A stretch of 64,000 bases of DNA, from positions 49,158-113,157 of the IMG/VR virus record IMGVR_UViG_3300048910_000190; one strand, written 5' to 3'. Below the pieces are notes generated by a model. The model was given only the letters and a program-made list of their open reading frames with translations. It made no database searches and was not told the DNA's origin. The DNA comes from a virus. Below are positions 1 to 62,795 of this stretch, piece after piece (within the stretch, counting starts at the first letter, position 1; each line of letters opens with the position of its first letter). The position numbers and the translations under genes are program-made.

Positions 1-128
1 CAGGCCCGGCACTCCCACTCGCCGAGGTCCAAGTCGTCGGCCACCGCGCGGCAGTGCACGGGGTATCGGTACGTGCCGATCCAGTGGATCGACCAGGTGT
101 CACCGGGCGGGTGGGGCTTGTCGGCCAT
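1..128 (-). CDS. Hypothetical phage protein, 3' end outside the window (MADKPHPPGDTWSIHWIGTYRYPVHCRAV...)
   Basis: Manual translation from ATG at 128, preceded by CTGCGAGAGGATGAG, which also precedes the gene at 59428. Confidence 0.6.
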   Translation of the reverse strand, partial: MADKPHPPGDTWSIHWIGTYRYPVHCRAVADDLDLGEWECRA

Positions 129-151
129 GGGCTCATCCTCTCGCAGGGAAG

Positions 152-176
152 CCGCCCCGGGCAGTCCCTGGGGCGG
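152..176 (-). terminator. GC hairpin downstream of the Spd-like operon
   Basis: CCGCCCC (152-158) and GGGGCGG (170-176) inverted repeat; only a short pyrimidine tail. Confidence 0.45.
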
Positions 177-186
177 GTGAAGCTGG

Positions 187-273
187 CGGTAGGCGCTCCG
201 GTAGGAGTCGCGGTAGGGGCCCGGTAGGCGGGGCGGTAGGAGCGTGCTGACCTGCGAGTCCTACCGCGACTCC
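187..273. repeat. Five direct CGGTAGG heptamers plus one inverted copy (iteron/clt-like array)
   Basis: CGGTAGG at 187, 199, 211, 222, 234 (11-12 bp period); perfect 14-bp inverted repeat GGAGTCGCGGTAGG (204-217) / CCTACCGCGACTCC (260-273). Confidence 0.85.
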
Positions 274-314
274 CCAGCCCCGGGGAGGGGCCGCGAGCGA
301 CCCCAGGGGAGCGG

Positions 315-1037
315 TCAGACGGCCTTCTGCAGCACCGCCGGGACAGGTGCCGGATCAACCTCCGGGAGGGCCTTCAGCCGCACCCCCAGCCGCACCCGCT
401 GACGGCGCCGGAAGTGGAGCTTCAGCTCCTCCACGGGCAGGCTCAGATCGTCCGTCAGATAGGCCTTCAGGTCGGCCTTCTCCCAGCCCCCGAAGAGGCC
501 CCTCCGCTGGCCCTCCGTGAGCACGTCGTCGAGGTGCGCGGCGGTGCCCTGATCGGAGGTGTTGGCCACGTGCCGGATGAGGGCCAGCAGCACCTGCAGG
601 GGCGGCTCCTCGTCGATCCACTCCCCGTCATCGTCGGCAGCCGCCTGCCCGGGCGCAGCTCCCTTCTCCGCCTCTCCGGACGCGGCGGCCGGCACGTGGC
701 CTTGGCCGGCGACCAGCGCGGCCAGCACCCACAGCAGCACGCTTACGGTGACCGCCGTGGGCAGCCACGCGCCGACCAGCGGCCAGAACAGCCACAGCAC
801 CCCGGCTGTCCCCCCGGCGCGCCAGGCCCACATCACGAACGGGCGCTTCACGTCACCCTGCTCGGCCTTCGCCGCCGGGTGGCTCGCGCAGTGTTCGGCG
901 TGGCTGGGCTTTTTGTGCTCCGGGTGCTCACACGGCTCGGGCTCCGGCTCGGTGTTGCGGGCCTTGATGGCGGCGGCGATCCGGCGGTGCCCGGCGGCGA
1001 ACGTCGCCAGGTTGACGCCCTTCAGGTAGCCGCGCAT
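315..1037 (-). CDS. Membrane protein with putative C-terminal winged-helix-like DNA-binding domain (ATPase-less TraB-like layout)
   Basis: ATG at 1037 overlaps the upstream stop (ATGA); two hydrophobic segments (WAWRAGGTAGVLWLFWPLVGAW...), acidic linker, basic C-terminal domain. Confidence 0.7.
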   Translation of the reverse strand: MRGYLKGVNLATFAAGHRRIAAAIKARNTEPEPEPCEHPEHKKPSHAEHCASHPAAKAEQGDVKRPFVMWAWRAGGTAGVLWLFWPLVGAWLPTAVTVSVLLWVLAALVAGQGHVPAAASGEAEKGAAPGQAAADDDGEWIDEEPPLQVLLALIRHVANTSDQGTAAHLDDVLTEGQRRGLFGGWEKADLKAYLTDDLSLPVEELKLHFRRRQRVRLGVRLKALPEVDPAPVPAVLQKAV

Positions 1038-1444
1038 CAGGCACCGAACCCGTGCAGCAGGGACGCCATGATGGTCACGGGCACCGCGAGAATGCCCCCG
1101 GCGGCCGAGAGCGCGCCAGGCAGCGCGACCCCCACGATCAGGTCCTTGGTCATGGTCGGCTTGGTGCCGAATCCGATCAGGATCAGGGTCACGGCAACCG
1201 CGCCGGCGCCGATCGGGCCTACGGCGCCGGACTGCTGGCTGACCGTCTGGTTGATCGTTGTGGCTACGGTGCTGAGCTGGGCCAGCGCCTGGCCGCCCCC
1301 GGCAGAGAGCAGGCCGAGCGCGGCACCCCAGTAGATGACGTGGTGGTCCTTGACGGGCTTGAGCCTTCCGCCGCCCTTCTTGTGGACGAACAGAGCGACG
1401 ATGATCAGGAGGATGGCACCGCCCGATCCGATTGCTCCGAACAT
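1037..1444 (-). CDS. Spd-like integral membrane protein
   Basis: 135 aa with several Gly/Ala-rich hydrophobic helices; resembles actinomycete plasmid/AICE spread proteins by composition and context. Confidence 0.7.
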   Translation of the reverse strand: MFGAIGSGGAILLIIVALFVHKKGGGRLKPVKDHHVIYWGAALGLLSAGGGQALAQLSTVATTINQTVSQQSGAVGPIGAGAVAVTLILIGFGTKPTMTKDLIVGVALPGALSAAGGILAVPVTIMASLLHGFGA

Positions 1445-1453
1445 GACGGCCTC

Positions 1454-2023
1454 CTAACGGGCAGTGGGGACGTGGCCGTACAGGACGGCGATGGTGGGGA
1501 CGAGGCCGCACATGGCGACCAGCGCGGAGGCGAAGGGAACCCGGGTGAGGATCACGCCCACGAGCGCCCACTGGCGGGCCTCGGAGACCCGCACCTTCCC
1601 CTTGCTGCGGAGCCACCAGTCGACCCACCAGGCGGCAACTACGGCTCCCACCTGGACCGGTTGCGGCAGGTGCGCGAGCGCCTGGGGCGCCCCGACCTCC
1701 CAGCCGATGCCGGTGGACACGGCGGTCAGCAGCACCCACTGCCGGAATCGCTTGACGCGCTCGCCGTAGTGCTGGCGCCACAGGGCGGTGGCGGCCCGCT
1801 CGGCCGCCTTCCGCTCGACCCGGTGCCGCGCCTCACGCTCGTTCTGGGTCTCGCCTGCGGCGATGAACGCCGCCTCGCGCTCGGTCTTCCGGCGGGTGGC
1901 CCTCTCCTCCGGGGTCTCGGCGATGATGGCGGCGATCCGCTCGAGGACCGCGGCGGGGAGGACGTGCGACGGGTCGTCGTCCTGCTCCGGCTCGCCCTCC
2001 TTCTCGTCCGGCTCCTCGGTCAC
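1454..2023 (-). CDS. Membrane protein with acidic N-terminus and coiled coil
   Basis: GTG at 2023 overlaps the upstream stop, RBS GGAG; C-terminal hydrophobic segments. Confidence 0.7.
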   Translation of the reverse strand: MTEEPDEKEGEPEQDDDPSHVLPAAVLERIAAIIAETPEERATRRKTEREAAFIAAGETQNEREARHRVERKAAERAATALWRQHYGERVKRFRQWVLLTAVSTGIGWEVGAPQALAHLPQPVQVGAVVAAWWVDWWLRSKGKVRVSEARQWALVGVILTRVPFASALVAMCGLVPTIAVLYGHVPTAR

Positions 2024-2118
2024 CTCCGGCTCCGGCGCATCCACCGGAGGGCGGTGTACGCGGCGGCGGCTGCGGTCGGCTCCCCTACGGCCAGGGCCCA
2101 CCAGATCAGACTGTGCAT
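2020..2118 (-). CDS. 32-aa membrane peptide (MHSLIWWALAVGEPTAAAAAYTALRWMRRSRR)
   Basis: Not in the ORF track; strong RBS GAAGGGGAG; its stop overlaps the next GTG. Confidence 0.6.
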   Translation of the reverse strand: MHSLIWWALAVGEPTAAAAAYTALRWMRRSRR

Positions 2119-2154
2119 CGTGCTCCCCCTTCGGGTGGCGGGTTCGGCGGCGCA

Positions 2155-2316
2155 TCATGACCGCCACCACTTCTTGGGCGCGGGTTCGACGACCCAGGTG
2201 GTGCGTCCTGCGCGGTTGCCTTCGATCTGGCGGTGGCCGGCACGGTCGGCCCGCCGGTTGGCGGCTGCCCGGCACTGCTGACCGGACTGCTCCGGCTTGT
2301 CCTTGCGTCCGAACAT
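2155..2316 (-). CDS. 53-aa basic protein (MFGRKDKPEQSGQQCRAAANRR...PKKWWRS)
   Basis: Not in the ORF track; ATG overlaps the DUF2637 gene stop. Confidence 0.6.
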   Translation of the reverse strand: MFGRKDKPEQSGQQCRAAANRRADRAGHRQIEGNRAGRTTWVVEPAPKKWWRS

Positions 2317-3428
2317 CACGCGTACCCGCCGTTCCCGTGGCGCCGCTCATGCGCGGCCTGCTGTGCGGCGGCCTCTGCCTGCTCGGCGGTGCGGGCGCGG
2401 GAGAGGGCGGTGCGGATGTATGCGGTGTCGGCGGGCCGGCCTGCCTTGGCGAGGGCTTGGGCAACGACCGATGCGGCGGTGTCGAGGCCGCCGAGGTGCC
2501 GGGCCATGGTGGTGATCGCATCGGCCTTCGACAGGCCGCTGAGCTGGGGCGCATCACCGCGCATCAGGGCGTCGAGTGCGGGGCGGCTGTCCCTCGGTGT
2601 GATCGGTGGCGTCTCGGGCCGTACCCGGTCGAGGGTGACCGTCGGCGTCGCGGCGAGTTCGAGGGCGAGCGCCACGTCGAGGGCTGACACGGTGGTGCCG
2701 TACGAGCCGAGCAGCTCAGCGAGCTCCGCATGGTTGAGGTGCGGGTGAGACTCAGCGGCAACGGTGATCACCTGGGCTGGGTCCATCGCGGCGAACTTCT
2801 CGGCGAGGACGGCGTGGGCGGTGCGGGGCCGTGATGCGGGCTGATGCGCGGGTGATGCGCCGCTGGTCACGTGCGCAACGGCCCTCGCCTGAAGCGCTCC
2901 AGCGGCTTCGTTGTGGGCGAGGAGCCACCCCCAGAAGCCGAAGCTCGGCAGGCGGAACGCGGACTCGCCGCGGGCAGCGCGAGCGTTGGCCCGATCGGCG
3001 TTCCATGAGAGCGCCGAGACAACGAGCAACCCGAGGGCCGGTGAGGCGTACAGCACCTCGGCGGGGTGGCCGCCGTGGGTGATGTCGGCGTGGACGAGGT
3101 TGAGGTAGACGGAGACGCTGGCCATGCCGAGAGTGGCGAGGATGCTGGGCGCTGCGGTTCGGCCGGCGCGGATCGCGTCGGATGCGGAGCGAAGGCAGAG
3201 ATAGGCGACGCCGTCGAAGACGAGTCCGGCGGCGAGAGCGAGTCCACGGGGGACGTCGTAGTGGCGGGCGACGGTGTAGAGACTCCAGCCGGCCATGCAG
3301 GCTGCTGCGAGACGGATGCCGCCGACGACTGCGTGGCGGCTGGCGGCTGCGATGAACTCGCGGAGGGCGTTGATGTTGCGGTGGCTGCTGTTGTCGGGGG
3401 GTTCGTGGGTAGGGTTTGTGCTGGCCAT
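2316..3428 (-). CDS. DUF2637-like (SpdB2-type) membrane protein with C-terminal HTH-like domain
   Basis: About four TM helices, motif LALAAGLVFDGVAY, low-complexity linker, C-terminus ..YIRTALSR..GNGGYA shared with the 61788-62795 protein. Confidence 0.75.
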   Translation of the reverse strand: MASTNPTHEPPDNSSHRNINALREFIAAASRHAVVGGIRLAAACMAGWSLYTVARHYDVPRGLALAAGLVFDGVAYLCLRSASDAIRAGRTAAPSILATLGMASVSVYLNLVHADITHGGHPAEVLYASPALGLLVVSALSWNADRANARAARGESAFRLPSFGFWGWLLAHNEAAGALQARAVAHVTSGASPAHQPASRPRTAHAVLAEKFAAMDPAQVITVAAESHPHLNHAELAELLGSYGTTVSALDVALALELAATPTVTLDRVRPETPPITPRDSRPALDALMRGDAPQLSGLSKADAITTMARHLGGLDTAASVVAQALAKAGRPADTAYIRTALSRARTAEQAEAAAQQAAHERRHGNGGYA

Positions 3429-3503
3429 GGGAGGCGTGTCTCCTGTGGTTGCGGAAGGGGCCGGGTCGCGGTGGAGTCGCGTGCCCGGCTCTGCCGTTTC
3501 CGG

Positions 3504-3681
3504 TCAGAGGTGGGTGTCGATGAGGTGTCGGAGGATGGCGGAGCGGCTGGTTCCTCCGGTGGTGGCGGCGGTGAGTTTGGCGATCTGGGGGCCGTAGAGG
3601 GTGATGCCGCCGATGACCTTTTTGGTGGGGGGGTTCGGTGGGCGCGGTGGCCTGGGGTGACCCCTCGTCAGAGGTGTGCAT
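3504..3681 (-). pseudogene. Ribbon-helix-helix (CopG/Arc-like) regulator split by a +1 frameshift in a G7 tract
   Basis: Leaderless ATG at 3681 after TTGCCG-N17-TACCTT; removing one base from the G7 tract (3627-3633) gives a 58-aa protein MHTSDEG...TKKVIGGITLYGPQIAKLTAATTGGTSRSAILRHLIDTHL. Confidence 0.6.
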
Positions 3682-3760
3682 ATGCACAAGGTAGCAGCTG
3701 TGCATATGCACGGCAATCGGCATGCTCGACGTATGCATATGCAGCCTTTAACCTGGGCGA
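3675..3760. promoter_or_regulatory. Divergent leaderless promoters with three TGCATATGCA palindromic operators
   Basis: Palindromes at 3677-3686, 3701-3710, 3734-3743; -10 TACCTT (minus) and TAACCT (plus, 3749-3754), each 6 nt before an ATG. Confidence 0.8.
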
Positions 3761-3940
3761 ATGGTCAGCCGAGCGAAGGACACCCACACCACGAACCGGG
3801 TCGTCCGCGTCCCCGATGCGGACTGGGCTGACCTAGGTGAGCGCGCTGGCAACCGGGCGCAGGTGCTGCGCGCGCTGATCGCCTGGTACCTGCGCCGACC
3901 GGGCGCTGAACTGCCAGAAAGGCCGCCCATCACGAAGTGA
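3761..3940 (+). CDS. 59-aa ribbon-helix-helix-like DNA-binding protein (MVSRAKDTHTTNRVVRVPDADWADLGERAGNRAQVLRALIAWYLRRPGAELPERPPITK)
   Basis: Not in the ORF track; alternating beta-strand RVVRV then two helices; leaderless promoter. Confidence 0.75.
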   Translation: MVSRAKDTHTTNRVVRVPDADWADLGERAGNRAQVLRALIAWYLRRPGAELPERPPITK

Positions 3941-3974
3941 CGGACGGCCTCCGACCTGCGCGCATCACGGCGCA

Positions 3975-4205
3975 TCAGGTACGGCGGGACTGCTTCTTGG
4001 GCAGCCAGCGTTCGCCGGCCCAGAGGGTGATGGTGCCGAGCATGGCGAACGTGGGGATGAAGATGACGAGGCCGAAGGCGCCACGGGAGGTGGTGACCGC
4101 GTGGGTGATGAGCGCCGCGGCCACCTCGACGGTAAGTGCCGTGAGGATCAGGTACCAGAACAGGGCGCCCTGCCGGATCCGGTAGCGGGGGCGCCTGGAG
4201 CTCAC
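3975..4205 (-). CDS. Small two-TM membrane protein
   Basis: GTG overlaps the upstream stop; two hydrophobic helices. Confidence 0.65.
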   Translation of the reverse strand: MSSRRPRYRIRQGALFWYLILTALTVEVAAALITHAVTTSRGAFGLVIFIPTFAMLGTITLWAGERWLPKKQSRRT

Positions 4206-4429
4206 TGGGACTCCTCGGGGTAGGGCTGGTCGAACCAGACCCAGCGGTCGCAGTCGCGTTCCCACTGCTCGACGCGGATCGCGGTCGCGGAGAACACGCC
4301 GGTGTTGATCGCATCGCGCAGGTTCCGGACCACCTCGTATGCCCGCGCCTCACTGGTGTGCTCGGTGCGGGTCGTGGCGCCAGCTGGGGTGGTGGCGATC
4401 ACCGCCCACGGCTTCGACTTGCGGGCCAT
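4202..4429 (-). CDS. Hypothetical phage protein
   Basis: 75-aa ORF coupled to neighbours; RBS AAGGAG. Confidence 0.7.
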   Translation of the reverse strand: MARKSKPWAVIATTPAGATTRTEHTSEARAYEVVRNLRDAINTGVFSATAIRVEQWERDCDRWVWFDQPYPEESQ

Positions 4430-4755
4430 CAGGACTCCTTCGTCGGGTCGGTCGCCAGGGCGCGGCGCGTCTGGTGCTGCTCGCGCCAGTGCCGGTTGGC
4501 GGCCTCGACGGCGATGCTGAGGCTGCTGGTGTCGCAGATGATGTGCTCGGACGGGCTGCAGTGGTGGCAGCGGATGCCGCCTTGGCCGACCGAGAAGTCG
4601 TGCAGGCGGGGCGCGTACGCCTGGTGGCGGATGATGACGGCCTCGGGCTGGCCGTCGCGGGTGACGAGCAGCGGGCCTCGTGTGCGGTGACTGTCGAGCC
4701 CTGCGATGGTGTCGCTGAGGTTCAGGGCGAGGTCGCGGATGTCGATCGGGTTCAT
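4429..4755 (-). CDS. Phd/YefM antitoxin-like domain fused to a Cys/His (Zn-binding) domain
   Basis: MNPIDIRDLALNLSDTI...GPLLVTRDGQPEAVII fits the Phd/YefM pattern; then CHHC...H. Confidence 0.6.
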   Translation of the reverse strand: MNPIDIRDLALNLSDTIAGLDSHRTRGPLLVTRDGQPEAVIIRHQAYAPRLHDFSVGQGGIRCHHCSPSEHIICDTSSLSIAVEAANRHWREQHQTRRALATDPTKES

Positions 4756-21892: not shown

Positions 21893-22357
21893 ATGACGGT
21901 CAGACAGCAGTGGCTCGCGGCAGCACTAGGAATCGCAACCGGGATCGCAGCCATCCTCCTGACCAGCGCCCCCGAACTGGGCGGAGCAATCCTCGGCGCC
22001 GCAGCAGCCGCCGGCGCCGGGGCCAGCATCCTCGACCGACGCACCCAGCAACTCCGCATAGCCACCGACCAACTGGACGAAGCCCGTCGGCAATACGAGG
22101 CAGCCCACGGAACCCTCGCCGGTCAGCGCGAGCGCATGCGCAGCGCCCAGATCGAAGCCGACGGTCGCCTCGCCGAACGAACCGCCACACTGAACGCCGC
22201 CCACCAGCGCGAGCTGATCGAAAGCCAGATGCAGTGGTTCGAGGAGGGCGCCAAGGCCGTCATTCTGGGACGTCTCCCCGTCGACGGCCCGTCCGACCTC
22301 GCATCGATCATCTCGCTCGGAGCCCACCGCCACCGCGCCGCCGGACCGCACAACTAG
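21893..22357 (+). CDS. Two-TM plus coiled-coil protein co-transcribed with the repressor
   Basis: Hydrophobic N-terminal hairpin then heptads; 10 bp after the repressor stop. Confidence 0.75.
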   Translation: MTVRQQWLAAALGIATGIAAILLTSAPELGGAILGAAAAAGAGASILDRRTQQLRIATDQLDEARRQYEAAHGTLAGQRERMRSAQIEADGRLAERTATLNAAHQRELIESQMQWFEEGAKAVILGRLPVDGPSDLASIISLGAHRHRAAGPHN

Positions 22358-23895
22358 TCACCGCCGACGCCGTCCGACTTCGGATCAAAGGGCCACTCGG
22401 TGAAGCCCGGCTCGCCAGGGAAGACCAAACGCGTCCTGGCGCCTGCCGGCAGGCTGCGACTCGACGACTGGGCCCGCAGCACCTCCACGCGAACCACCTT
22501 GCGCACCACGTGACGCTGCTGCTCAAGGGTCATCTTGCGCGACCACAAGTCGTCCAATTCGTCCGGCGAAGCCGCCAGCAGCTCATCCAGCAGCGAATCG
22601 CCAGCTGACATCATCCGCTGCAGCCCCGCCTCGCACGCCGCAAGCAGTGGCACGATCCCCTGCTCCATCGCGGCCAACGATGCTGCTGACAACGCAGGCA
22701 GCCCCGTCTCCGGACTGAACGTCACGGCCTGCTGCCGAGCCTCGGCCAACTGGTTGGACATAGCCGCATGCCTGGCCCGTTCGCGCTCGATCTCGGCCGT
22801 GGAGTCAACCCGCTGAAAGGCACTTCGCGCGGCCGGCGAGGCCAACCAGAGCAGCAGGCCCTCTTCCACATAGGCGTCCAGCCTGGCTTTCATGATGCTC
22901 AGATGGTTCTGCGTGCACCGATACAGGGCCTTCCGGCTGTACTGCGGCCGGTCGCCCACCGCCTTCATGCGGGCAGCCTTGACGTCACCACCCTCTCGGC
23001 ATACCGAACACAAGGCGATTCCCGTCAAGAGGTGCTGAACGCCACTGGTGTGCGTCGTCAACCGCGCGGGGTCCTTGAGGATTGCCTGTACCCGCCAGAA
23101 CAGGGCCTCATCAACGATCGCATCCCACTGCGCCGGGTACTCGGTTTCCTTGTGGACCCGGATACCGATGTACGCCCTGTTCGTCAGGATGATCCGGAGA
23201 CCCGTTGTCTGAATATCCGGACGCCACGGCTTCATCAGCGGCAGGAGCGAGTTGAGACTGTGCTGTTCGTCGACCCGCTTGAACAGCTCCCGTACCACGG
23301 GGCCCTGCTCGGGGTGGACGACCTGACCGAGGAGCTCGCCGGTGTCCGGGTCGTACTCGCGCTTGAACCCGAAAGCGACCGGGGCGTGAGCGCCGCCGCG
23401 CCTGGCATTGAGGTTGACTGTTCGTACGATCCGAGAGGTGATGCCCTCGCCCTCCTCCTCGGCCTGGAGGGCGTCACGAGTGAACTCGCGGAAGTCGGAG
23501 GGGACGCGCATGTCGTACAGGCGGCCGTCGTAGTACAGCTTGATGTCTGTCCGCTCGCACAGGTCGCGAAGTCCGATGGACACCTGCATGTTGCGAGAGA
23601 GCCTGCTCTTCTCCGCGTAGACCACGACGTCGATCAGGCCGGCTTCCATGTCGGCGACCATGCGTTCGTAGTCCTCACGGACCTTTTTGGCTCGCCGTGA
23701 GGCGGATCGGTCGAGGTCCTTGTAGTAGTCGACGATGGTCCAGCGGTTGTCGGCGCAGACCATCTCACCGACGGCGAACTGGTCTTTGACGGATCGTCCG
23801 CGCTTGTTGCGGTCGCGGGAGGCGCGGCCGTAGAGGGCGGCGCGGAGAGGGCGCGCGAGGGCTTCCGACCTGGGCAGCGGGATGACGGTGGCCAT
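22354..23895 (-). CDS. int: Large serine integrase
   Basis: ALYGRASRD catalytic motif, SRLSR, recombinase domain, LLTGIALCSVC...YRC Zn ribbon, coiled coil; leaderless TATCCT-N6-ATG. Confidence 0.95.
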   Translation of the reverse strand: MATVIPLPRSEALARPLRAALYGRASRDRNKRGRSVKDQFAVGEMVCADNRWTIVDYYKDLDRSASRRAKKVREDYERMVADMEAGLIDVVVYAEKSRLSRNMQVSIGLRDLCERTDIKLYYDGRLYDMRVPSDFREFTRDALQAEEEGEGITSRIVRTVNLNARRGGAHAPVAFGFKREYDPDTGELLGQVVHPEQGPVVRELFKRVDEQHSLNSLLPLMKPWRPDIQTTGLRIILTNRAYIGIRVHKETEYPAQWDAIVDEALFWRVQAILKDPARLTTHTSGVQHLLTGIALCSVCREGGDVKAARMKAVGDRPQYSRKALYRCTQNHLSIMKARLDAYVEEGLLLWLASPAARSAFQRVDSTAEIERERARHAAMSNQLAEARQQAVTFSPETGLPALSAASLAAMEQGIVPLLAACEAGLQRMMSAGDSLLDELLAASPDELDDLWSRKMTLEQQRHVVRKVVRVEVLRAQSSSRSLPAGARTRLVFPGEPGFTEWPFDPKSDGVGGD

Positions 23896-23918
23896 GCGCA
23901 AAGGATAGGGCCAGTCAC

Positions 23919-55047: not shown

Positions 55048-58000
55048 TTAGGACAGGGCGCACCACCAGGCGTTGGACGCTCCTGCGAGGGTGCCGATGC
55101 TGGACGGCATTGAGGTGGTCTGGCCGGTCGCCGCGGTGCCATAGCGGCTGGTGGATGCCGAGAGGCCCGCGTTGACGGCGCTCTGGCTGACCCCTCGCAG
55201 GAAGGACGGCAGCGTGCTGCCGTTGGCGAAGAAGCCGATCAGATAGTCCCCGGCCGCGAGAGCCTGCGCGCCCCCGGCGAGGGCCATCGTCTTCGTGCCG
55301 GTGCTCGCCCAGGCCGTCGCCTGATCAGCGGTCGATGCGATCAGGCTGCCCGCTGCGGTGTACAGCCCGGCGAAGCACTGGCCGCTCGTCAGGCCGGATC
55401 CGGCGGTGGAGACGAACATCAGGATGTTGGTGATGGAAGCGGCGACGGGGAGGTGGATGCGGGCGAAGTGCACCGTGCCCGCGGCTGGGAGGAGTTGCCC
55501 GGCTGCGCAGGTGGCGGGGTCTTGGGTCCAGGTGGTCAGGCCGTGGTCTTCCGGTGACCAGTAGACGCGGGGGTGGACGTGGCCGACCGCTGTGGCGCTG
55601 GGGCCTGCCCCGGCGGCGCCGATCGCGCCGGCCTTGGTGGGGATGGTGGTGGTGTCTACGGTGGCGCCGCTGCTGGCGGAGGTGAGGGCGTAGCGCATCA
55701 GCTCGCCCATCGTGAGGACTGGGATCCCCTTGGAGTTGATCGCGGCGATGATCGAGGTGAAGTCGGAGGTGAGGCACTGGGAGGTGTCGGCCGGGCTGGC
55801 GGCGACGAGCTGGTGGAAGTTGAGGACCAACACGCCACCGTTGGCCTTGATCTTGTCGAGGTCTCCGCCCGCGCCGGTGATGTTGGCGGGCGCGTAGCCG
55901 CCGGAGAAGGAGGAGATGGCGGAGATGCGCCGGACCCGGAACGGGTCCGACGGCGGGAAGACCTCGCGGGTCTTGTTGACCGTGGTCGCCGACGTCGCGA
56001 AGTACTTCTGCAGGATGCTGGTGATCGACGTGCCGTCAGTCGTCTTGCCGGTCGCCCCCTTCGGCAACGCGAACAGGTCAGCGCCGTGGAAGCCGTTGCT
56101 GACGGCGTACGCCTTCATCGCGCGGGCGTCCGCATCCACCTGCGCGGCCGTCACCCCGGCGTAGGTGAGCCCGTGGATCGTGTCCGAGCTGGCATGGCAG
56201 GCCAGCTCCCAACCGGACGCGGCTTGGAGGTCCTGCATCTCCTGGAGCGTCAAGCGGCCCGACAGGCCCACCCGGTCCTGGATGACGTAGGCCGTTACCG
56301 GGTAGCCGTACGTGTCGAGGATGGTCTTGCCCTGGTCGATGAACGACTGGTACACGTCATCGGCGGTCAGGATCACGACGCCGGACGGGAACACCGCCGC
56401 CCCGTCAGCGATCAGTTCGGCGGCCTGCAGGCGCACCGTGACCGCCGCCCCCGTGTCCCGGATCCGGACGCGCAGCGCGGTGAGACCGGAGCGGGCGCCG
56501 GCCCCGACCGCGGTGGCGTCCGCGAACCCGAGGCTCATCAGCACCCAGTCGCCGGACGTCAGGTAGGTGCTGGTGCCGGTGGTGCTCTGCGGGTTCCATG
56601 TCCAGCCGGACGCGAACGTGCCGTCGACGGCGAGCGTGACGTCGAGGTTCTGCAGGGTCGTGATGTCTTCGACGCGCACGGCGATTCGCAGCGCCTTGCC
56701 GGTCGTGTCCGCCGAGGTGATCGCCCCGGTGACGGCGTAGGTGGCATTGTCGCCCGGGCTGACGTACTTGGCGCACTGGGAGCCGCGGGCGAACACGACT
56801 GTGTCGGCCGTGAGGGTGCCACCGTTGGCGACGAAGCTGTTGCCGGACTGCCACTCGGTGAGGATTGCCGAGGCCTGCGGGAAGCGGGGGAGACGGAACG
56901 TGGGCGGGTAGATGGCGGTGCTGCTACCGGAAGCACTGTTGCTGGTGTTGGTCAGCAGGATGCTGGCCGGGTAGTTGGTGGAGGCGTAGACGGTGCCGGT
57001 CCCGGTGCCCTTCGTGACCAGGGCCAGGGTGACGAGGCCGCCGGAGATGTGGCCGGCCGCGACGGTGAACTCCCACTCGCCGCCGACTCCTGGGAATGAG
57101 GATGCCTGCGGATAGTAGGAGGGCAGGCCTTCGGTGGCAGGGGTGGTCGTGCCGGACGAGGCGTACAGGTTGGGTACGCCCGATGAGTCGAGCAACGCGA
57201 GGTCGAGGAACTGTCCGGAGGAGGAGCGCATGAAGCTCGCGGAGATGCTGACCTTGTCGCCCGCGGCGGCGGCGATCTGTGCCTGCAGCGGTACGGTGCC
57301 GCCACTCTTGACGATCTGCCAGGCACCGGAGGTGTTGGGCAGGGTCACGTCGCCGGGCGTGAGGTACTGCTCGACGGTCGTGACCGTGGTGCCGCTACTT
57401 CCTCCGCTGCCTGCAGTCGCTGTGGCCCAGGCGACACCCGCGCTCTTGGTCGAGTCCGCGGTGAAGACCTGCCCGTCCGTGCCGACGCCGACCCGGGCGA
57501 GAGTGCCGGAGCCGGTGGCGACGAACACGTCGCCCTTCGTTGTCGCGAGGCTCTTGGCCACGTACAGGGCGGCGGCTGAGGTGACGGCTGCTCCGGATGC
57601 CGCGATGGCCCGGTTGTCGGCGTAGGCGCGGTCTCCGTGCGGGTCGGTCGCTGCGACGTGCGCGGTGATGGCAGCGGCCGGCGCCCCGCTGGCAGCGTAG
57701 GTGGCATTCGCGCGTGCGATTTCGGCGCTGATCTGGGTGTCGGTGTAGGCCCGATCGGCGTGCGGGTCGGTGGCAGCAACGTGGGCAGCCACTGCTGCTG
57801 CGGGGGCACCGGACGCGGCGTAGGTGGCATTGGCCCGGGCGACCTCTGCTGCCACCTTCGTGTCGGTGTAGGCCTCCGCGGTGGTGAGCGCAGCGGTTGC
57901 GGCGCCGGCCGCGTCGAAGGTGGCGATCGTCGCCGACGACAAGGTCGGGTTGGGGTAGGCGCCGGTAAGTGCGCCGCCGGCCGGGCCCGATGGTGCGCCG

Positions 58001-58530
58001 CCTCCGCTGCCGCCGATGGGCTGCCCGGTGCCCCAGGAGTTGGTGGTCTTCGGGCCGTAGATGACGAGTGCGGTCGGGATGCTGTTGTCGATGTACCAGT
58101 CGCCGACGATGCCGATGCCGAGGTCGGGGGCGCCGCTTCCGGAGCGGACGGAGTTGCCTTGCGGCCCGGTGACGACGAGGTAGGCGCCGGATGCGGGCAC
58201 GGTTGGGGTGACGGCGGGGAGGCTGACGTTGGGTGCTGCTGCTGGCAGGGCGAGCGGGTACAGCCGCACGATCTGGTGGGCTTTCATCTCGGCGACGAGA
58301 TAGGTCCAGCCGGTTGGGGTGCATCCGGCGGCGTCGGTGGCGACGAGCGTCGCGGCCATGCCGCCGGTGGCGTCGACGGTGGCGTTGCTGGTGCCGTGCA
58401 GGATGACGCCGTACGTGGGGGAGGTGACGGTGGGTGCGGTGAAGCGGACTTCGTCGATGTCGAGGGTGCCGTCGGGGGCGAGGTATCGGCCGGTGACGGT
58501 GACGGTTTCGAGTCCGGGGGGGAAGGTCAC
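55048..58530 (-). CDS. Large fibre/spike-like virion protein with a NodB polysaccharide-deacetylase-like domain
   Basis: Baseplate-anchor-like N-terminus, GDWYID/YPNPTL motifs, DPH repeats, TKGD motif, LTADD...WELACHA...IH, C-terminal WWCALS. Confidence 0.8.
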   Translation of the reverse strand: MTFPPGLETVTVTGRYLAPDGTLDIDEVRFTAPTVTSPTYGVILHGTSNATVDATGGMAATLVATDAAGCTPTGWTYLVAEMKAHQIVRLYPLALPAAAPNVSLPAVTPTVPASGAYLVVTGPQGNSVRSGSGAPDLGIGIVGDWYIDNSIPTALVIYGPKTTNSWGTGQPIGGSGGGAPSGPAGGALTGAYPNPTLSSATIATFDAAGAATAALTTAEAYTDTKVAAEVARANATYAASGAPAAAVAAHVAATDPHADRAYTDTQISAEIARANATYAASGAPAAAITAHVAATDPHGDRAYADNRAIAASGAAVTSAAALYVAKSLATTKGDVFVATGSGTLARVGVGTDGQVFTADSTKSAGVAWATATAGSGGSSGTTVTTVEQYLTPGDVTLPNTSGAWQIVKSGGTVPLQAQIAAAAGDKVSISASFMRSSSGQFLDLALLDSSGVPNLYASSGTTTPATEGLPSYYPQASSFPGVGGEWEFTVAAGHISGGLVTLALVTKGTGTGTVYASTNYPASILLTNTSNSASGSSTAIYPPTFRLPRFPQASAILTEWQSGNSFVANGGTLTADTVVFARGSQCAKYVSPGDNATYAVTGAITSADTTGKALRIAVRVEDITTLQNLDVTLAVDGTFASGWTWNPQSTTGTSTYLTSGDWVLMSLGFADATAVGAGARSGLTALRVRIRDTGAAVTVRLQAAELIADGAAVFPSGVVILTADDVYQSFIDQGKTILDTYGYPVTAYVIQDRVGLSGRLTLQEMQDLQAASGWELACHASSDTIHGLTYAGVTAAQVDADARAMKAYAVSNGFHGADLFALPKGATGKTTDGTSITSILQKYFATSATTVNKTREVFPPSDPFRVRRISAISSFSGGYAPANITGAGGDLDKIKANGGVLVLNFHQLVAASPADTSQCLTSDFTSIIAAINSKGIPVLTMGELMRYALTSASSGATVDTTTIPTKAGAIGAAGAGPSATAVGHVHPRVYWSPEDHGLTTWTQDPATCAAGQLLPAAGTVHFARIHLPVAASITNILMFVSTAGSGLTSGQCFAGLYTAAGSLIASTADQATAWASTGTKTMALAGGAQALAAGDYLIGFFANGSTLPSFLRGVSQSAVNAGLSASTSRYGTAATGQTTSMPSSIGTLAGASNAWWCALS
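57628..57873 (-). repeat. Two tandem 123-bp (41-aa) intragenic repeats
   Basis: AYTDT.....ARANATYAASGAPAAA..AHVAATDPH.DR twice. Confidence 0.9.
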
Positions 58531-58634
58531 CGGTTGGTCCTCCATCGGGCGGGCAGGGGTGTGGTCTGCCTGGTGGAGGGGGCCGGGCGTTGCCTATCGG
58601 AGCATGGGCGGCGGCGGGGCGTGTGAATGCGAAA

Positions 58635-58657
58635 GGCCCCGCCGTGGTGGCGGGGCC
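58635..58657 (-). terminator. Terminator between the early and late regions
   Basis: GGCCCCGCC-N5-GGCGGGGCC followed by TTT on the minus strand. Confidence 0.7.
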
Positions 58658-58829
58658 GTTGGTGGATCGTAGAGGGGAGCCCATTCCCTCAAGCATCGCA
58701 GGCCAGGTTCGTCGGGCGTCGAGTACGCGTCCTCTTCGCCGTTCAAGTCCTGCCGTTCGGGCAACGTCTGGTGATCGAGCCAGCCGTCCCACGCCAGACG
58801 CGCGGTTTCTCTCAGTGTGCCACGGTGCG

Positions 58830-59261
58830 TCAGCTGGTCAGTGCCCACTCGGGCTTGTAGTCGGGGTGATAGGCGTACGCCAGGGCGAACTTGCGGAGCG
58901 CGTCTTCCATGACGGCGGCGAAACCGCTCAAGAAGGTCGCGTGGTAGTCATGGGCGCGTTCAGCGAGGCGTATGACGTCCCGCTTGGCGTCGACCTCGGC
59001 CAGCACACGCGCCGGATCATGGCGGGCGATGTGGCTGGCATCGGCCATGCTTTGCCGGTCGTCGGTCTCACCAGTGCCTGCAACGCACGTCGCTGCAGCG
59101 CCATCAGGGCCGCTGAAGACGGCTTCCTCGAACCAGGAGGTGCCGGGCTTACGCCAGTGCTTGTTCGGATTGTGCCGCCACGGACCGCTCGTTGCTGCCC
59201 TTGCCGCCTGCTCGTCCTCGTCGAGGCGTGCCCGGAGAAAATCCACCAGGTCGTCGGTCAT
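58830..59261 (-). CDS. DUF6221-like phage protein
   Basis: DLVDFLRARLDEDE, HIARHDPARVLAEVDAKR, LAYAYHPDY. Confidence 0.85.
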   Translation of the reverse strand: MTDDLVDFLRARLDEDEQAARAATSGPWRHNPNKHWRKPGTSWFEEAVFSGPDGAAATCVAGTGETDDRQSMADASHIARHDPARVLAEVDAKRDVIRLAERAHDYHATFLSGFAAVMEDALRKFALAYAYHPDYKPEWALTS

Positions 59262-59428
59262 CGTGGGCTCACAACATCACACCTGTCGGGTCCACCGAGG
59301 GCACCACCATGCCCGTACATGCAGTTGATGTTCTGGCAAGCGTGGTCGTCGGATGCTGGGGCGAAGATCAGTGGGTTGCCGTGGACGGGGCAGACACAAA
59401 GGTCACTGCACTGGTGCTGGCTGCTCAT
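59258..59428 (-). CDS. 56-aa Cys/His-rich protein (MSSQHQCSDLCVCPVHGNPLIFAPASDDHACQNINCMYGHG...)
   Basis: Manual translation; stop overlaps the DUF6221 ATG. Confidence 0.7.
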   Translation of the reverse strand: MSSQHQCSDLCVCPVHGNPLIFAPASDDHACQNINCMYGHGGALGGPDRCDVVSPR

Positions 59429-59481
59429 GTCTCATCCTCTCGCAGTCGGGCCCGCCAGGTCGTTGCCTGACAGGTCCCAGT

Positions 59482-59760
59482 TCAGCAGTACGACTCGCCG
59501 CCGCACCCGTTCCACTGTGCGCGGACGTATTCCAGCGGCCCGTCGTCGTCGCTCCAGGTCGCAGATCCGGGCCCTGGGAGGCCGGGTGCCCAGGTGCCGT
59601 GCCTGCGGTCGTAGTCGAGGAGTTCGAGCGCCTGGTTGAGGTAGTCGTCGGGCGGCAGCGCCGGGTCGGCGAGGTGCTGCAGGTCTGCGGCCACGGCCCG
59701 CTGCAGCAGGTGGTCCCGCTCGGCCTTGGCAGTGCTGGTGAGGTGCGAATCAAGCTCCAC
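59482..59760 (-). CDS. Hypothetical protein downstream of the translocase
   Basis: RBS GGAGGTGG; overlaps the translocase stop. Confidence 0.6.
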   Translation of the reverse strand: MELDSHLTSTAKAERDHLLQRAVAADLQHLADPALPPDDYLNQALELLDYDRRHGTWAPGLPGPGSATWSDDDGPLEYVRAQWNGCGGESYC

Positions 59761-61720
59761 CGTCAGCCACCTCCTCCTCGTCGCGGGCCGGGAGCGAGTA
59801 CCTGACCGCTGCGCCCTCCTTCTCCCCGATGATGCCGTGCTCCAGCCACACGTCGACGGCCCGGCGGACCGTGTCCCGGCTGTCGAACGGGCCGTCCCGG
59901 TGCAACATGTCCTTCGTCACCGAGCCGTGCTCCTCGCACAGCTGGCAGAACACCCGGTACAGGGACGGCTGGCCATCCGCGCCGACCGGCTGGCCGTCCG
60001 GGTAGCAGAGCTGCGGGCGCGGAGGCGGAACGAGCCGAATCTGCGGCCGCACATCCGCAGCCGCTGGACGACCGCGCCCCATGACGACATCCCTGACGTC
60101 TGCCGTGATGTCCGCGCCGCTCACGAACTCCGCGCGGCACTTCGGCGGGCTCGTCAAAGGCATCTCCGGGCAGCCGAGATAGAACTCGCCCCGGCGCGTC
60201 AGCTCATGCGGGGTGAACCCCGCAGTCTTCCAACCGGTCCCGAAGATGAACTGGGTGTGCCCAGCCTCGCCAACCCGAGTAGAGATCCGGTTGCCGTAGT
60301 TCCCGCGGGCGTCCGTGTCACCACCGAACACCTTGGCGGAGGGCTGCTGCGTCGCAGAAAGGAACTGGATCCCGTAACCACGGGCGAGGGCCAGCAGCGA
60401 CTGGTACGTCGTCGTGATCGCCTGCTCGGCGGGGCCGGCGTCGGGGTCGCCCTTGGCGAGTGCGGCCTCCTCCTTGCGGAGTTCTTCGTCCTGCCGGATC
60501 AGCTCCGCGAGCTCATCGGTGACGATGAACCAGACCGGCCCGTGCACGCCGGGCACCCACTTCTGGATCGAATCGTGCCCCGCGGCGATCGACTCCTTCG
60601 ACAGCGCCTCCAGGACGGCGCCGCGACGGTCGAGTTCGGCGCGGATCTTGTGCAGAAGGTCGCGCGCCTCCTCCGGGCCGCGGGCGAGGCCCTTCATCAG
60701 GGGCTCCCACGGTCCGAGCTCCAGGGCGCCCGGCTTCATGTCGATCCCGAAGATCTCGACGTGCTTCTTGCGTAGCAGCTTCTTGACGATGAGGTTGACG
60801 ATCCCGGACTTGCCCCAGTCGCTGGCGCCGGCCACGAGGGTGTGCCGGTACAGCATGGTCAGGAGGACCGGCTCGCCGTTCTCGTCCCAGCCGATGCGGA
60901 TCGGGTCGTTGATGTCGTCAGTCTCGCCGTCGAGGCTGAACGGGATGACGTCGTCGCAGAAGGGGTTCCTGGCGGGGGTGGGCTCGGGCGCGATGAGGGC
61001 GTCGGCCGCCGGCGCCAGTTCATCGGCCTGGGCCGGGGCGGCGGTGGGCACGATGGCGCCCTTCACGGCCTTCGTCCCGTTGGTGGCGGCCAGTTCGCGC
61101 TCGTGCTTGCGATGCTCCTTCAGCCACGGCACCCAGCCGGCGTAGCCGACACCGGTCGCCACGACTGTCGCCATGAGCGAGGCGCCCCCGATACCACCTC
61201 CGACCGCTACTGCCGCGTCAGCAAGGGCGATGCCAACACCAGCGCTGATGGTGTGGAGGCTCTCCTTCTCGACCTTCAGCCCGATCCAGGACACGCCTGC
61301 GGCAACGGCGGTTGCGGCGGCGTATCCGGTGGCGGCACCAGCCCCGGCTCCGGCGAGGTGCTGCGCCCAGCCGATGGTGCTGACGGTGCCGGTAGCGGCG
61401 GCGGGGACGAGCTCCAGGCGGTAGCGGAGGACGAGGCTGTAGACGCGGCGGGCCACGAGGGCGCATCCGGCCCGGAGGCGGCGCTGAGCTGGGGTTTTCT
61501 TCTCTGTGACGGGCAGGTAGATGGAGTTGAAGTCCGGTGACGACGACGGCTGGGCTGGCGCGTCCGGGGCAAGCGTCCAGGTGATGTGACCTGCGGTTTC
61601 GACGACGGGGGCTGTCGTCGGCACGTTCGTCGTCGGAATCGTCGTCACGTTCGTCACGGCCGTGCTGGGCGCGCGCCGGGGCTGCGGCAGAAGCACGGGG
61701 CCGAGGTGCTGCTGGGCCAC
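59750..61720 (-). CDS. FtsK/SpoIIIE-family TraB-like DNA translocase
   Basis: N-terminal TMs; Walker A AGASDWGKS; GIDMKPG; Walker B FIVTDEL; ATQQP; C-terminal winged-helix-like domain. Confidence 0.88.
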   Translation of the reverse strand: MAQQHLGPVLLPQPRRAPSTAVTNVTTIPTTNVPTTAPVVETAGHITWTLAPDAPAQPSSSPDFNSIYLPVTEKKTPAQRRLRAGCALVARRVYSLVLRYRLELVPAAATGTVSTIGWAQHLAGAGAGAATGYAAATAVAAGVSWIGLKVEKESLHTISAGVGIALADAAVAVGGGIGGASLMATVVATGVGYAGWVPWLKEHRKHERELAATNGTKAVKGAIVPTAAPAQADELAPAADALIAPEPTPARNPFCDDVIPFSLDGETDDINDPIRIGWDENGEPVLLTMLYRHTLVAGASDWGKSGIVNLIVKKLLRKKHVEIFGIDMKPGALELGPWEPLMKGLARGPEEARDLLHKIRAELDRRGAVLEALSKESIAAGHDSIQKWVPGVHGPVWFIVTDELAELIRQDEELRKEEAALAKGDPDAGPAEQAITTTYQSLLALARGYGIQFLSATQQPSAKVFGGDTDARGNYGNRISTRVGEAGHTQFIFGTGWKTAGFTPHELTRRGEFYLGCPEMPLTSPPKCRAEFVSGADITADVRDVVMGRGRPAAADVRPQIRLVPPPRPQLCYPDGQPVGADGQPSLYRVFCQLCEEHGSVTKDMLHRDGPFDSRDTVRRAVDVWLEHGIIGEKEGAAVRYSLPARDEEEVADGGA

Positions 61721-61763
61721 GGCAAGGTCCTCTTTCTAGGGTGGGGAAACGGGAAACAAGCAG

Positions 61764-62268
61764 TGATGCGGACACGGAGCCCGGTGACTACAGGTAGCCG
61801 CCGGTGCCCTGCTGCGGGTCGGTGGATGATGCGCGGGAGAGCACGGTGCGGACGTAGTTCGCGTTGACGGTGATGCCGTGCGGTGCGAGCGCATCAGCGA
61901 TCTGCTGCGCCTGCGCATCAGGGTGCGCATCGCGCATCGCCCGGACTGCGGCGGCCTTCGAGAGCGCGGTGAGGTCGATGTCGTGCGGCGCCTCAAGGCC
62001 ATCGCTCGTGTGCGCATCAGGTGATGCGGCCTGCGGCACGGTGATGATGCGCGGGGCCGCATCACGGTTCTGACGTGTATAAACAGTGGGCGCATCAGGG
62101 GTGGCCGGGGCGCGGCGGGGCTGCGGTGACGGTGCGATCTGGCGTGGCTGCTGAAGCGTGATGACGATGTGCTGCGCATCGTCGTGCGATGCGGCGAGTG
62201 CGGCGGCGGGTGATGCGGTGATGCGCTCGGCGTGGGGCGCATCAGGTGAGGCGAAGTACGCCGCATCA
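61764..62268. repeat. Array of 13 CGCATCA/TGATGCG heptamers in both orientations
   Basis: Copies at 61764, 61827, 61890, 61914, 62013, 62022, 62045, 62058, 62091, 62211, 62219, 62238, 62262. Confidence 0.85.
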
Positions 62269-62795
62269 CCTTCGATGCGGTCGAGGCGGGCCTCGACAGC
62301 GGTGCGCGTCACGGTGAACGACTTCTTCGGGAAGAAGAGCCAAGCCAGCCCGGGGATCACGGGGAGTGACGCCTGGACGCGGCCTTGCTGGCGGAGTGCT
62401 TCGCGGTGCTCGAAGCGGTGCCACATCTCAAAGGCGATCTCGGCGATGCCGGGGGCGGAGCCGAGGAGGATGCCGCCGACGGTTCCCCAACCCTCCAGGT
62501 GGGCGTGGGTCCAGTTGGTCCAGGTGCTGGCGGAGACCATGGCGAGCATGGCGAGGCGCGGGGCGAGGCCCGAGTCCTCGGAGGTGGCGTAGCTCTGGGC
62601 GAGGAGGGCGAAGTAGAGGGCGGCGATGTCGAACATGCCGGAGCCGAAGACGGCAATCTGCCAGGGGGCGTGGAACATGACGGTGAGGAGGGTGTAGATG
62701 GACCAGGTGCCGACGGCGAGGGCTGCGCCCATGACGAGGAACAGGGCGCCGCGGATCGCCTTCTTCTTCCTGGGGCCGGTGCTGTTCTCGTTCAC
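61788..62795 (-). CDS. DUF2637-like (SpdB2-type) membrane protein with C-terminal HTH-like domain
   Basis: About four TMs, GMFDIAALYF motif, C-terminus LSKAAAV...YVRTVLSR...GTGGYL homologous to 2316-3428. Confidence 0.8.
   Translation of the reverse strand: MNENSTGPRKKKAIRGALFLVMGAALAVGTWSIYTLLTVMFHAPWQIAVFGSGMFDIAALYFALLAQSYATSEDSGLAPRLAMLAMVSASTWTNWTHAHLEGWGTVGGILLGSAPGIAEIAFEMWHRFEHREALRQQGRVQASLPVIPGLAWLFFPKKSFTVTRTAVEARLDRIEGDAAYFASPDAPHAERITASPAAALAASHDDAQHIVITLQQPRQIAPSPQPRRAPATPDAPTVYTRQNRDAAPRIITVPQAASPDAHTSDGLEAPHDIDLTALSKAAAVRAMRDAHPDAQAQQIADALAPHGITVNANYVRTVLSRASSTDPQQGTGGYL

Follow-up and report, generated by a model that had tools for sequence, protein, structure and literature searches.

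Conjugation and intramycelial spread of mobile DNA in Streptomyces are thought to hinge on the FtsK-like protein TraB, which reads a locus termed clt via a winged helix. In plasmid pSVH1, TraB reads 8-bp repeats with helix 3 of a winged helix-turn-helix (wHTH) domain at its C-terminus (PMC3583192, PMC4170104); in plasmid pWTY27, the corresponding protein, TraA, has transmembrane (TM) helices at residues 68-90 and 102-124 and an FtsK domain, and its clt, which starts 16 bp inside the traA-type gene and runs 3' from there, contains 7-bp direct repeats and inverted repeats and is bound by TraA (PMC3583192). Two Spd proteins are also relevant: SpdA2 of plasmid pIJ101 binds a specific motif and affects stability, not transfer (PMC4170104), and SpdB2 has homologues on actinophages, proposed to help phage DNA to spread (PMC4447253). 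Here we analyze a locus in a 64,000-nucleotide stretch of viral DNA ('the window'; bases 49158-113157 of the 135-kb IMG/VR record IMGVR_UViG_3300048910_000190; 70% G+C) in which a gene, g81, encoding a two-TM protein with a C-terminal winged helix (WH), is followed directly by an array of phased 7-bp repeats ('heptads'). The g81 family and its cognate site look like a motor-less counterpart of the TraB-clt DNA-recognition pair. We thus describe a hitherto unreported protein family together with its proposed cognate site, a variation on the known Tra/Spd-clt theme.

The protein encoded by g81 (240 aa; 315..1037, minus strand) comprises an N-terminal helix, a Cys/His-rich stretch, two TM helices, an acidic disordered linker, and a C-terminal WH. 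The TM pair, which a sequence-only reading of the window had already assigned to this gene, is borne out: it spans residues 66-111 (nt 705-842), is hydrophobic on the Kyte-Doolittle scale, appears in the AlphaFold2 model as helices 66-83 and 85-111, and lies at nearly the positions of the TM pair of pWTY27 TraA. The same reading had proposed a WH-like domain, and this proposal holds at the level of fold, with no closer assignment. The domain (residues 145-226; nt 360-605) is modeled with a predicted local distance difference test score (pLDDT) of ~90 for residues 145-225 in the whole-protein model, which was built with an alignment of relatives, and with a pLDDT of 89 and a predicted template-modeling score (pTM) of 0.80 when folded alone; in both models, assignment by DSSP gives the H-b-H-H-b-b topology, with a basic wing, of a canonical winged helix. 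The top 50 rows from VIA and Foldseek are nearly all WH domains, many of them DNA-binding, and include TcpK-oriT, forkhead, BlaI/MecI, MarR, PadR, and ORC/Cdc6/MCM domains; FtsK-gamma and the TraB wHTH are not among the listed structural neighbors, a relationship with them still being possible. The term 'basic', which had been applied to the whole domain, is appropriate for the wing, RRRQRVRLGVRLK, and not for the domain overall, which is nearly neutral (13 Lys/Arg vs. 11 Asp/Glu). The Cys/His-rich stretch (residues 36-53; nt 879-932; C-x-H-x2-H-x4-H-x2-H-C-x2-H) is kept in most g81 orthologues, is absent from ~200-aa forms, and may be a metal site on a cytoplasmic N-terminal segment.

The similarity to TraB is one of layout and not of detectable sequence. 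Like TraB and TraA, g81 has a TM pair and a C-terminal WH, here a predicted one, and is followed directly 3' by short direct repeats and an inverted repeat (PMC3583192), the described comparators being the 8-bp TraB recognition sequences (TRS) of pSVH1, DC1/DC2 of pWTY27, and the clt loci of pJV1 and pIJ101. Like them, it is accompanied by Spd/DUF2637 genes and, in plasmids and actinomycete integrative and conjugative elements (AICEs), by a divergent GntR (Kor/TraR-type) regulator (PMC3583192, PMC4447253). In contrast to pWTY27 TraA and pSVH1 TraB (~690-770 aa), g81 has no FtsK/SpoIIIE ATPase, has no detectable sequence relation to these proteins, and resides, in the carriers checked, on elements without a translocase; the heptad and the adjacent core described below differ from the repeats quoted for clt loci in PMC3583192. 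The sequence-only reading had described g81 as resembling a TraB with the motor removed, and, as a statement of descent, this description is not supported. BLASTP and hhalign comparisons of g81 with the FtsK-like protein encoded in the window yielded nothing, no longer fused forms of the family were found, and the ten longest profile-search matches, when scanned, contained no PF01580/FtsK fusion, being tandem-WH proteins, eukaryotic Ish1/SAP repeat proteins, or proteins without a Pfam match. Because no FtsK fusion was found and the family is nearly all 180-300 aa, with the WH domain C-terminal, we conclude that g81 is not detectably a truncated TraB. The family as a whole is unnamed. A word search with g81 found 24 relatives, all unnamed and all from Streptomyces, Kitasatospora, or soil metagenomes; a profile search with the WH domain found ~161 representatives among 1.84 billion, again all unnamed; a PDB sequence-profile search with g81 gave chance-level matches only; and the ESM Atlas returned 'hypothetical protein' clusters only.

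The array begins 42 nt downstream of the g81 stop codon (315-317). In the direction of g81 transcription, the intergenic region contains a GC-rich hairpin (270..294, minus strand) that is terminator-like and lacks a U-tract; an inverted heptad (260..266; GGTAGG on the minus strand, CCTACCG on the plus strand), present in one or two copies in relatives; a 10-nt core, CGCAGGTCAG (247..256, minus strand); and, on the other side of the core, five direct heptads (187..240; CCTACCG on the coding, minus strand and CGGTAGG on the plus strand). The direct heptads start at positions 187, 199, 211, 222, and 234, giving spacings of 12, 12, 11, and 12 bp, in agreement with the five repeats at 11-12 bp noted in the sequence-only reading. 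The perfect 14-bp inverted repeat noted in that reading is also present (204-217 / 260-273), pairing the inverted heptad with the third direct heptad, and the array lies, as stated there, within 50 bp of the gene. The 14-bp perfect repeat is lineage-specific; outside close relatives, just the 6-7 nt inverted heptad is kept. The heptad occurs 11 times in the window, compared with 5.4 +/- 2.4 times in shuffles, and six of the 11 occurrences fall inside 80 bp (the whole 135-kb record contains 13). Judged from the spacing, the heptad geometry fits protein binding on one face of the DNA. Replication iterons are repeats of ~17-22 bp that adjoin, and are bound by, the Rep initiator of the element. 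The name 'iteron', which had been given to these repeats, is thus a misnomer, since no rep gene neighbors the array (a Rep_1-like gene lies ~3.7 kb from the array in NZ_CP108187.1, and a DnaB-like gene lies ~10 kb away in this phage) and since each unit is a 7-bp heptad, recurring once per helical turn. Literature string searches found no paper printing the composite motif.

Comparison across carriers establishes that the array is neither due to chance nor specific to this window. We identified 32 distinct arrays when one mismatch was allowed in the last core base, 30 of them via the exact core. Most of the arrays share a common layout, in which the stop codon of a g81 homologue is followed by a GC hairpin, one or two copies of GGTAG(G), 4 nt, CGCAGGTCAG, 6-8 nt, and three to five copies of CCTACC(G). 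Spacing within the layout is tightly constrained: the core lies 9 nt past the start of the final GGTAG in 30/30 exact-core arrays, the first CTACC comes 7 nt after the core in 22/30 (range 6-8 nt), and successive direct heptads are 10-13 bp apart, spacings of 11 and 12 bp being seen 32 and 44 times, respectively. The total number of sites, counting both orientations, is most often six (17/32 arrays), the commonest orientation combinations being 2+4 (12 arrays) and 1+5 (5 arrays). The core is identical in all 30 arrays found via the exact core and has one mismatch in L053, which was found through its protein.

The array tracks the protein family across elements and across deep divergence. The g81 homologue is followed by the array in loci L002-L006 and L008 to L019 and also in two plasmids, NZ_CP108187.1 and NZ_CP108517.1, even where the WH domains are only ~45% identical; the carriers of the layout include a 34-kb phage contig, a Kitasatospora prophage, five more viral contigs, six Kitasatospora genomes, and an S. 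kaniharaensis plasmid. In NZ_CP108187.1 and NZ_CP108517.1, the array is present next to a 299-aa protein (p299) that shares with g81 the WH domain only, at ~48% identity. A profile search also found the array after still more distant WH homologues in AICE-like chromosomal elements; among distant relatives, L052 has heptads and core in rearranged order, and L054 has irregular heptad spacing. Homologous operons thus do not lack downstream repeats: because the array is conserved beside homologues in every context examined, this comparison fails to refute the proposal of the sequence-only reading that g81 sits beside its binding site. A natural control is provided by a homologue, P0020 (L007), that keeps the N-terminal half of the protein and has an unrelated C-terminal domain; the 12.6-kb contig encoding P0020 contains a single CCTACC and no array, either downstream of the gene or clustered elsewhere.

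The reciprocal, DNA-first approach gives the same association. A search of 401 Streptomycetaceae genomes for the pattern GGTAG-N4-CGCAGGTCAG-N6-11-CTACC, with the reversed pattern as control, yielded 20 matches in 17 genomes for the pattern and 0 for the control. The 20 matches represent 18 distinct sites, since one overlaps another match at its site and one is a duplicate at a contig end. At 16 of the 18 sites, the pattern lies 0-120 nt 3' of a g81-like or p299-like gene identified by tblastn, usually with g82 and g83 homologues upstream. Of the other two, L048 follows a TM+WH protein that is too divergent for BLAST, aligns with the family, and is accompanied by variant ACTACCC heptads, and L042 is a two-repeat remnant without a TM+WH gene. 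Different carriers have different small genes downstream of the array, and the S. kaniharaensis plasmid has no co-directional gene there; for these reasons, the sequence comparison indicates that the array belongs to the upstream module and not to what follows. Near-identity DNA searches with window positions 1-4500 found no match in plasmid and phage collections.

The upstream module comprises g81 and two co-inherited genes. The gene immediately upstream, g82 (135 aa; 1037..1444, minus strand), encodes a Gly/Ala-rich polytopic membrane protein, and its stop codon overlaps the g81 start; g83 (~200-238 aa, start uncertain; 1454..2170, minus strand) encodes a protein with a charged coiled-coil N-terminal part and C-terminal TM helices. 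The three genes g83-g82-g81 occur together in 16/16 loci compared, with a g82 homologue immediately preceding the g81 homologue in each of the 16 and likewise in the pattern-found loci; g84 and the downstream genes vary. g84 (370 aa; 2316..3428, minus strand) encodes a DUF2637/SpdB-like membrane protein: it matches phrog_29416 (E 4e-36), its tblastn matches include phage genes annotated DUF2637, and it has no match at E<0.1 in Pfam, PF10935 included, the homologue in L002 having a 'faint' DUF2637 match. Homologues of g84 in L002, L006, and L011 indicate that it is a frequent, not a universal, companion of the module. The module resembles the Spd proteins of pSVH1 (SpdB2/DUF2637, SpdB3, Spd79) in forming a translationally coupled operon of small membrane proteins with, in plasmids, a GntR regulator (PMC4447253), and differs in that SpdB2 binds DNA non-specifically, with no cognate site described, and in that g81, g82, and g83 match no named family and no informative family in Pfam, NCBIfam, PHROGs, or PADLOC.

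The module also lacks a motor. The sequence-only reading had described the left operon as six genes with no ATPase. The absence of an ATPase stands, and the gene number does not: four genes (g84, g83, g82, and g81) are supported in 315-3428, and the count of six hangs on two tiny open reading frames (ORFs) called in a relative. We found, in g81-g84, no Walker A motif ([AG]x4GK[ST]) and no ATPase match in Pfam (E<0.1), NCBIfam, PHROG, or PADLOC; a positive control, g171, matches PF01580 and has a Walker A motif at residue 298. The same scan, which covered these four genes only, found no Walker A motif or ATPase family of a partition NTPase of the ParA, ParM, or TubZ type.

The surrounding elements provide a comparison between related positions with and without a motor. 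Crude gene calling combined with Pfam mapping of the record revealed two siphovirus-type structural modules: one to the left of the window, at genome 41.7-47.1 kb, encoding TerS, TerL, a portal, and a protease, and a second at window 36-58 kb, encoding an SPP1-type portal and an HK97-type capsid. The second module belongs to a second phage (element B; window 35000-58600 and 59750-62795), which also has its own terminase. A large serine recombinase gene (22354-23901) lies between the two modules. The g81/array locus belongs to the first phage (element A), where it separates the early region from the late genes; the minus-strand order is g84, g83, g82, g81, array, g80, six small genes, and TerS. 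In element B, the gene after DUF2637 (61788-62795) encodes an FtsK/SpoIIIE-like protein (59750-61720) with a Walker A motif at residue 298, whereas in element A the corresponding slot, after the DUF2637 gene, is occupied by g83-g82-g81 and the array. No phased short repeats were seen downstream of the element-B FtsK-like gene (58500-59800).

In Streptomyces and Kitasatospora, the module is carried by temperate phages, by plasmids of the relaxase/rolling-circle kind, and by an integrative element resembling pSAM2; the carriers checked encode no FtsK-family protein of their own. The only PF01580 match in the 135-kb record is the gene at 59750-61720, inside the second phage. No FtsK/SpoIIIE gene was found in G002, a 50.5-kb relative with its own serine integrase; in G001, a 95%-identical contig that is collinear with genome 7.1-55.7 kb and that, because it has no integrase, is probably incomplete; in NZ_CP108187.1 (complete circular, 14,258 bp) or NZ_CP108517.1 (complete linear); or in the S. 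kaniharaensis plasmid contig WBOF01000014.1 (G143:C3; 19,559 bp). The last contig has an identical array at 6183 and 19412 and repeats itself after ~13.2 kb, and thus probably represents a circular plasmid whose assembly is terminally redundant. The integrative element L055 (Streptomycetaceae JBITXL010000005.1, 9514-19582) is chromosomal and has a pSAM2-like gene order (NUDIX / GntR - DUF6284 - DUF6303 - SpdB-like - small - g83-like - g82-like - TM-WH - array - two small genes - Rep - Xis - Int), in which no FtsK/Tra gene was found between kor and rep. The plasmid carriers have a relaxase, MobC, and a Rep_1-type gene; in the phage carriers, no relaxase was found. The suggestion that the module could borrow the translocase encoded at 59750-61720 therefore does not survive as a general rule: that gene belongs to the neighboring phage, and, because the carriers checked encode no FtsK/SpoIIIE, its product cannot be the module's general partner.

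We propose, with a probability of roughly 0.45 for the statement as a whole, that g81 and the array are a cognate pair that tethers the DNA of the element to a Spd-like membrane complex, in a manner like that of clt. The first step is the most secure: the C-terminal WH of g81 likely binds the CCTACC(G) heptads, of which four or five stand in one orientation and one or two in the other, around CGCAGGTCAG, for a total of about six sites at intervals of one helical turn. Such binding would build up an oligomer of about six membrane-anchored WH domains on the DNA (a complex prediction with four copies of g81, which scored 0.00 with an uncertain partner fold, bears on this in neither direction), and the resulting nucleoprotein complex would hold the DNA of the element against the membrane on its cytoplasmic side, where g81 would sit with the co-inherited g82 and g83 and, usually, a DUF2637/SpdB-like protein. 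The module would then be the DNA-recognition part of a Spd-like apparatus for intramycelial spread or transfer, with the array serving in cis as clt serves for TraB and, because the module has no translocase ATPase, with any motor that is needed supplied in trans. For this inferred role in spread or transfer, we put the odds at somewhat short of even. A described parallel is TcpK-oriT of pCW3, in which a wHTH relaxosome accessory protein binds repeated transfer-origin sites and whose structure, 5vfx, is among the best, and weak, structural matches of the g81 domain; TcpK differs in being a chain of ~100 residues (5vfx, 5vfy) that acts with a relaxase, whereas the phage carriers of g81 have none.

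Several observations weigh against this proposal. The structural matches of the g81 domain are generic and weak (Foldseek E of at least 0.04; Z of at most 6.7), and for this reason the fold supports 'winged helix' and not 'binds array'. The CTACC core of the heptad hardly varies across the family, and there is no covariation of protein and site beyond the domain-swap case. The core CGCAGGTCAG, which the proposal does not explain, may be the true functional center, bound or cut by another factor. The next operon (phage late genes, or rep-xis-int in the integrative element) starts, in most carriers, immediately after the array, a position that would suit a regulatory role equally well. To our knowledge, an ATPase-less spread or transfer apparatus is without precedent in Streptomyces. 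Finally, because the plasmid carriers have a relaxase and MobC, transfer of these plasmids need not involve the module.

The position of the array speaks for a regulatory alternative, in which g81 is a membrane-tethered transcription factor of the ToxR/CadC/TcpP type that, by binding the heptads, activates, represses, or blocks transcription into the next operon, coupling membrane events to expression of phage late genes or of a Zn-ribbon gene and rep-xis-int. ToxR/CadC-type factors are membrane-tethered, DNA-binding winged-helix proteins that act on direct repeats, and heptads at 11-bp phasing are typical of winged-helix activators of the OmpR or Streptomyces antibiotic regulatory protein (SARP) class. 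In addition, the array lies between a terminator-like hairpin and the ribosome-binding site (RBS) of the next co-directional gene, the last heptad is 10-15 nt from the start codon in several loci, and in the pSAM2-like element the array separates the kor-controlled block from rep-xis-int. We nevertheless consider this alternative unlikely. Conservation does not extend to the genes downstream, and in one plasmid no co-directional gene follows the array; the strictly conserved partner of the array is the upstream three-gene membrane module; a scan of 1-4000 found no sigma-70-like promoter; and factors of the ToxR/CadC type combine a single TM helix and a periplasmic sensor with a wHTH that is N-terminal and of the OmpR type, whereas g81 has a C-terminal WH of predicted canonical, not OmpR-type, topology, two TM helices, and no external domain. 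The consensus sites of host OmpR-type regulators (PhoP, MtrA, and GlnR) do not appear to match the heptad and were set aside.

The remaining alternatives place the function of the array elsewhere. If g81 did not bind the array, the array could be the site of a host factor or another protein, or of DNA processing or recombination at CGCAGGTCAG, and its linkage to g81 could reflect a mosaic junction. Consistent with this, the core is more strictly conserved than the heptads and lies at fixed distances from them, the heptads converge on the core by inspection, and GGTAGG, likewise by inspection, resembles the inner six bases of the E. coli FtsK-orienting polar sequence (KOPS) motif, GGGNAGGG. One Kitasatospora locus (sp. 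NPDC094028; L009 6690-7400) has, 630 bp downstream of its full array, a second partial array consisting of two GGTAGG, the core, and one CCTACCG, the two copies flanking a small CxxC ORF; this arrangement suggests recombination at the array and hints that arrays also serve as recombination or insertion junctions. The linkage to the WH gene, however, survives moves between phages, plasmids, and integrative elements and survives deep protein divergence, the domain-swapped homologue has no array, and phage carriers have no relaxase, making this alternative decidedly improbable. A membrane-anchored centromere or stability site, with which g81 would attach copies of the element to the membrane or to septa and so distribute them among hyphal compartments and spores, has parallels in sopC, parC, and parS, which are phased direct repeats in cis adjoining the gene for their binding protein. 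It has a further parallel in the SpdA2-sps pair of pIJ101, in which a small plasmid protein acts on a specific conserved motif at its own gene, with effects on stability and not on transfer (PMC4170104). The sps site differs in being a single palindrome within the coding region, whereas the array is extragenic and phased, and SpdA2 is not described as membrane-anchored, whereas g81 is a two-TM protein. There is no partition NTPase in the operon, and the carriers are integrated prophages, an integrative element, and rolling-circle plasmids of multicopy type, which have little need for active partition; we give this alternative little credence. Finally, a resident g81 could capture incoming array-bearing DNA and thereby block superinfection or redundant conjugal entry. 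A prophage- or plasmid-borne membrane protein with a DNA-binding domain for the site of its own kind would suit such self-recognizing exclusion, and the integrative-element carrier also has a Pif-like NUDIX gene, but no nuclease or other effector is present, PADLOC gives no matches, and the fixed core and the site position are left unexplained, so that we regard exclusion as very improbable indeed.

The locus presents the logic of TraB-clt, that is, a membrane anchor, a winged helix, and a repeat locus beside the gene, without a motor, and does so in mobile elements of three classes, among them temperate phages and an integrative element that resembles pSAM2 except in having no tra gene. If g81 binds the array, then an 80-bp cis site and a small protein would constitute a portable system for probing DNA recognition at the hyphal membrane, and would allow one to ask whether Spd-type proteins move DNA with a host motor or with none, and whether phages spread through the mycelium as plasmids do. 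The pair would also flag mobile elements, such as L055-like AICEs, that detection based on tra genes would be expected to miss. A more ambitious version of the proposed tethering, which we regard as unlikely, is a TraB-independent, ATPase-less spread or transfer module shared by phages, rolling-circle plasmids, and pSAM2-like elements of Streptomyces and Kitasatospora, in which a roughly hexameric ring of membrane-anchored WH proteins would load double-stranded DNA at the six-site, clt-like locus, with its heptads pointing toward a fixed core, and pass it to a Spd/DUF2637 pore or to a host motor of the FtsK family; if this were true, there would be a second, unrecognized intramycelial route for DNA, used by phages too.

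Analysis of the region around the array yielded additional observations. Within the core region, an ECF-type (extracytoplasmic-function) -35 element, 'GGAAC', was considered and rejected, because the bases in question lack conservation from array to array. Nor is an RNA element favored: an Rfam scan of 1-500 gave no match, and the predicted RNA folding of the intergenic sequence is unremarkable (z-score -1.6). GC hairpins analogous to the one past the g81 stop codon precede the array in relatives. In this window, a second GC hairpin (152-176) and a motif containing an RBS, CTGCGAGAGGATGAG (132-146), lie ahead of g80, the first gene past the array (62 aa; 1..128, minus strand), which starts at 128 and runs off the window. 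The motif CTGCGAGAGGATGAG stands directly ahead of the first post-module gene in both phages of the window (132-146; 59431-59445) and is placed likewise in two unrelated viral contigs, L008 and L019. In plasmids and integrative elements, the array is often followed by a small Zn-ribbon-like ORF, (M/V)YRYRCxxC...TTSP, with a conserved His further on (L027 7571-7819; L028 6560-6808; L036-L038; L052 3590-3841; L053 4886-5146). Divergent from the g84 operon is a 59-aa ribbon-helix-helix-like gene (3761-3940, plus strand), a candidate local regulator of the module. The record contains a paralogue of this gene (43% identity; genome 1692-1931), and homologues occur in L015, L017, L008, and L019.

Two observations concern the record as a whole. 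The two phages have in common a protein of 962/1165 aa with a polysaccharide-deacetylase domain (76% identity; genome 36041-38929 and window 55048-58545), whose gene does not occupy the same place in the two structural modules. Genes at opposite ends of the record (genome 4323-5326 vs. 134419-135338) show 75-91% protein identity, which suggests that the record is not one 135-kb phage and includes at least portions of another, third element of related kind, or else related prophages in tandem.

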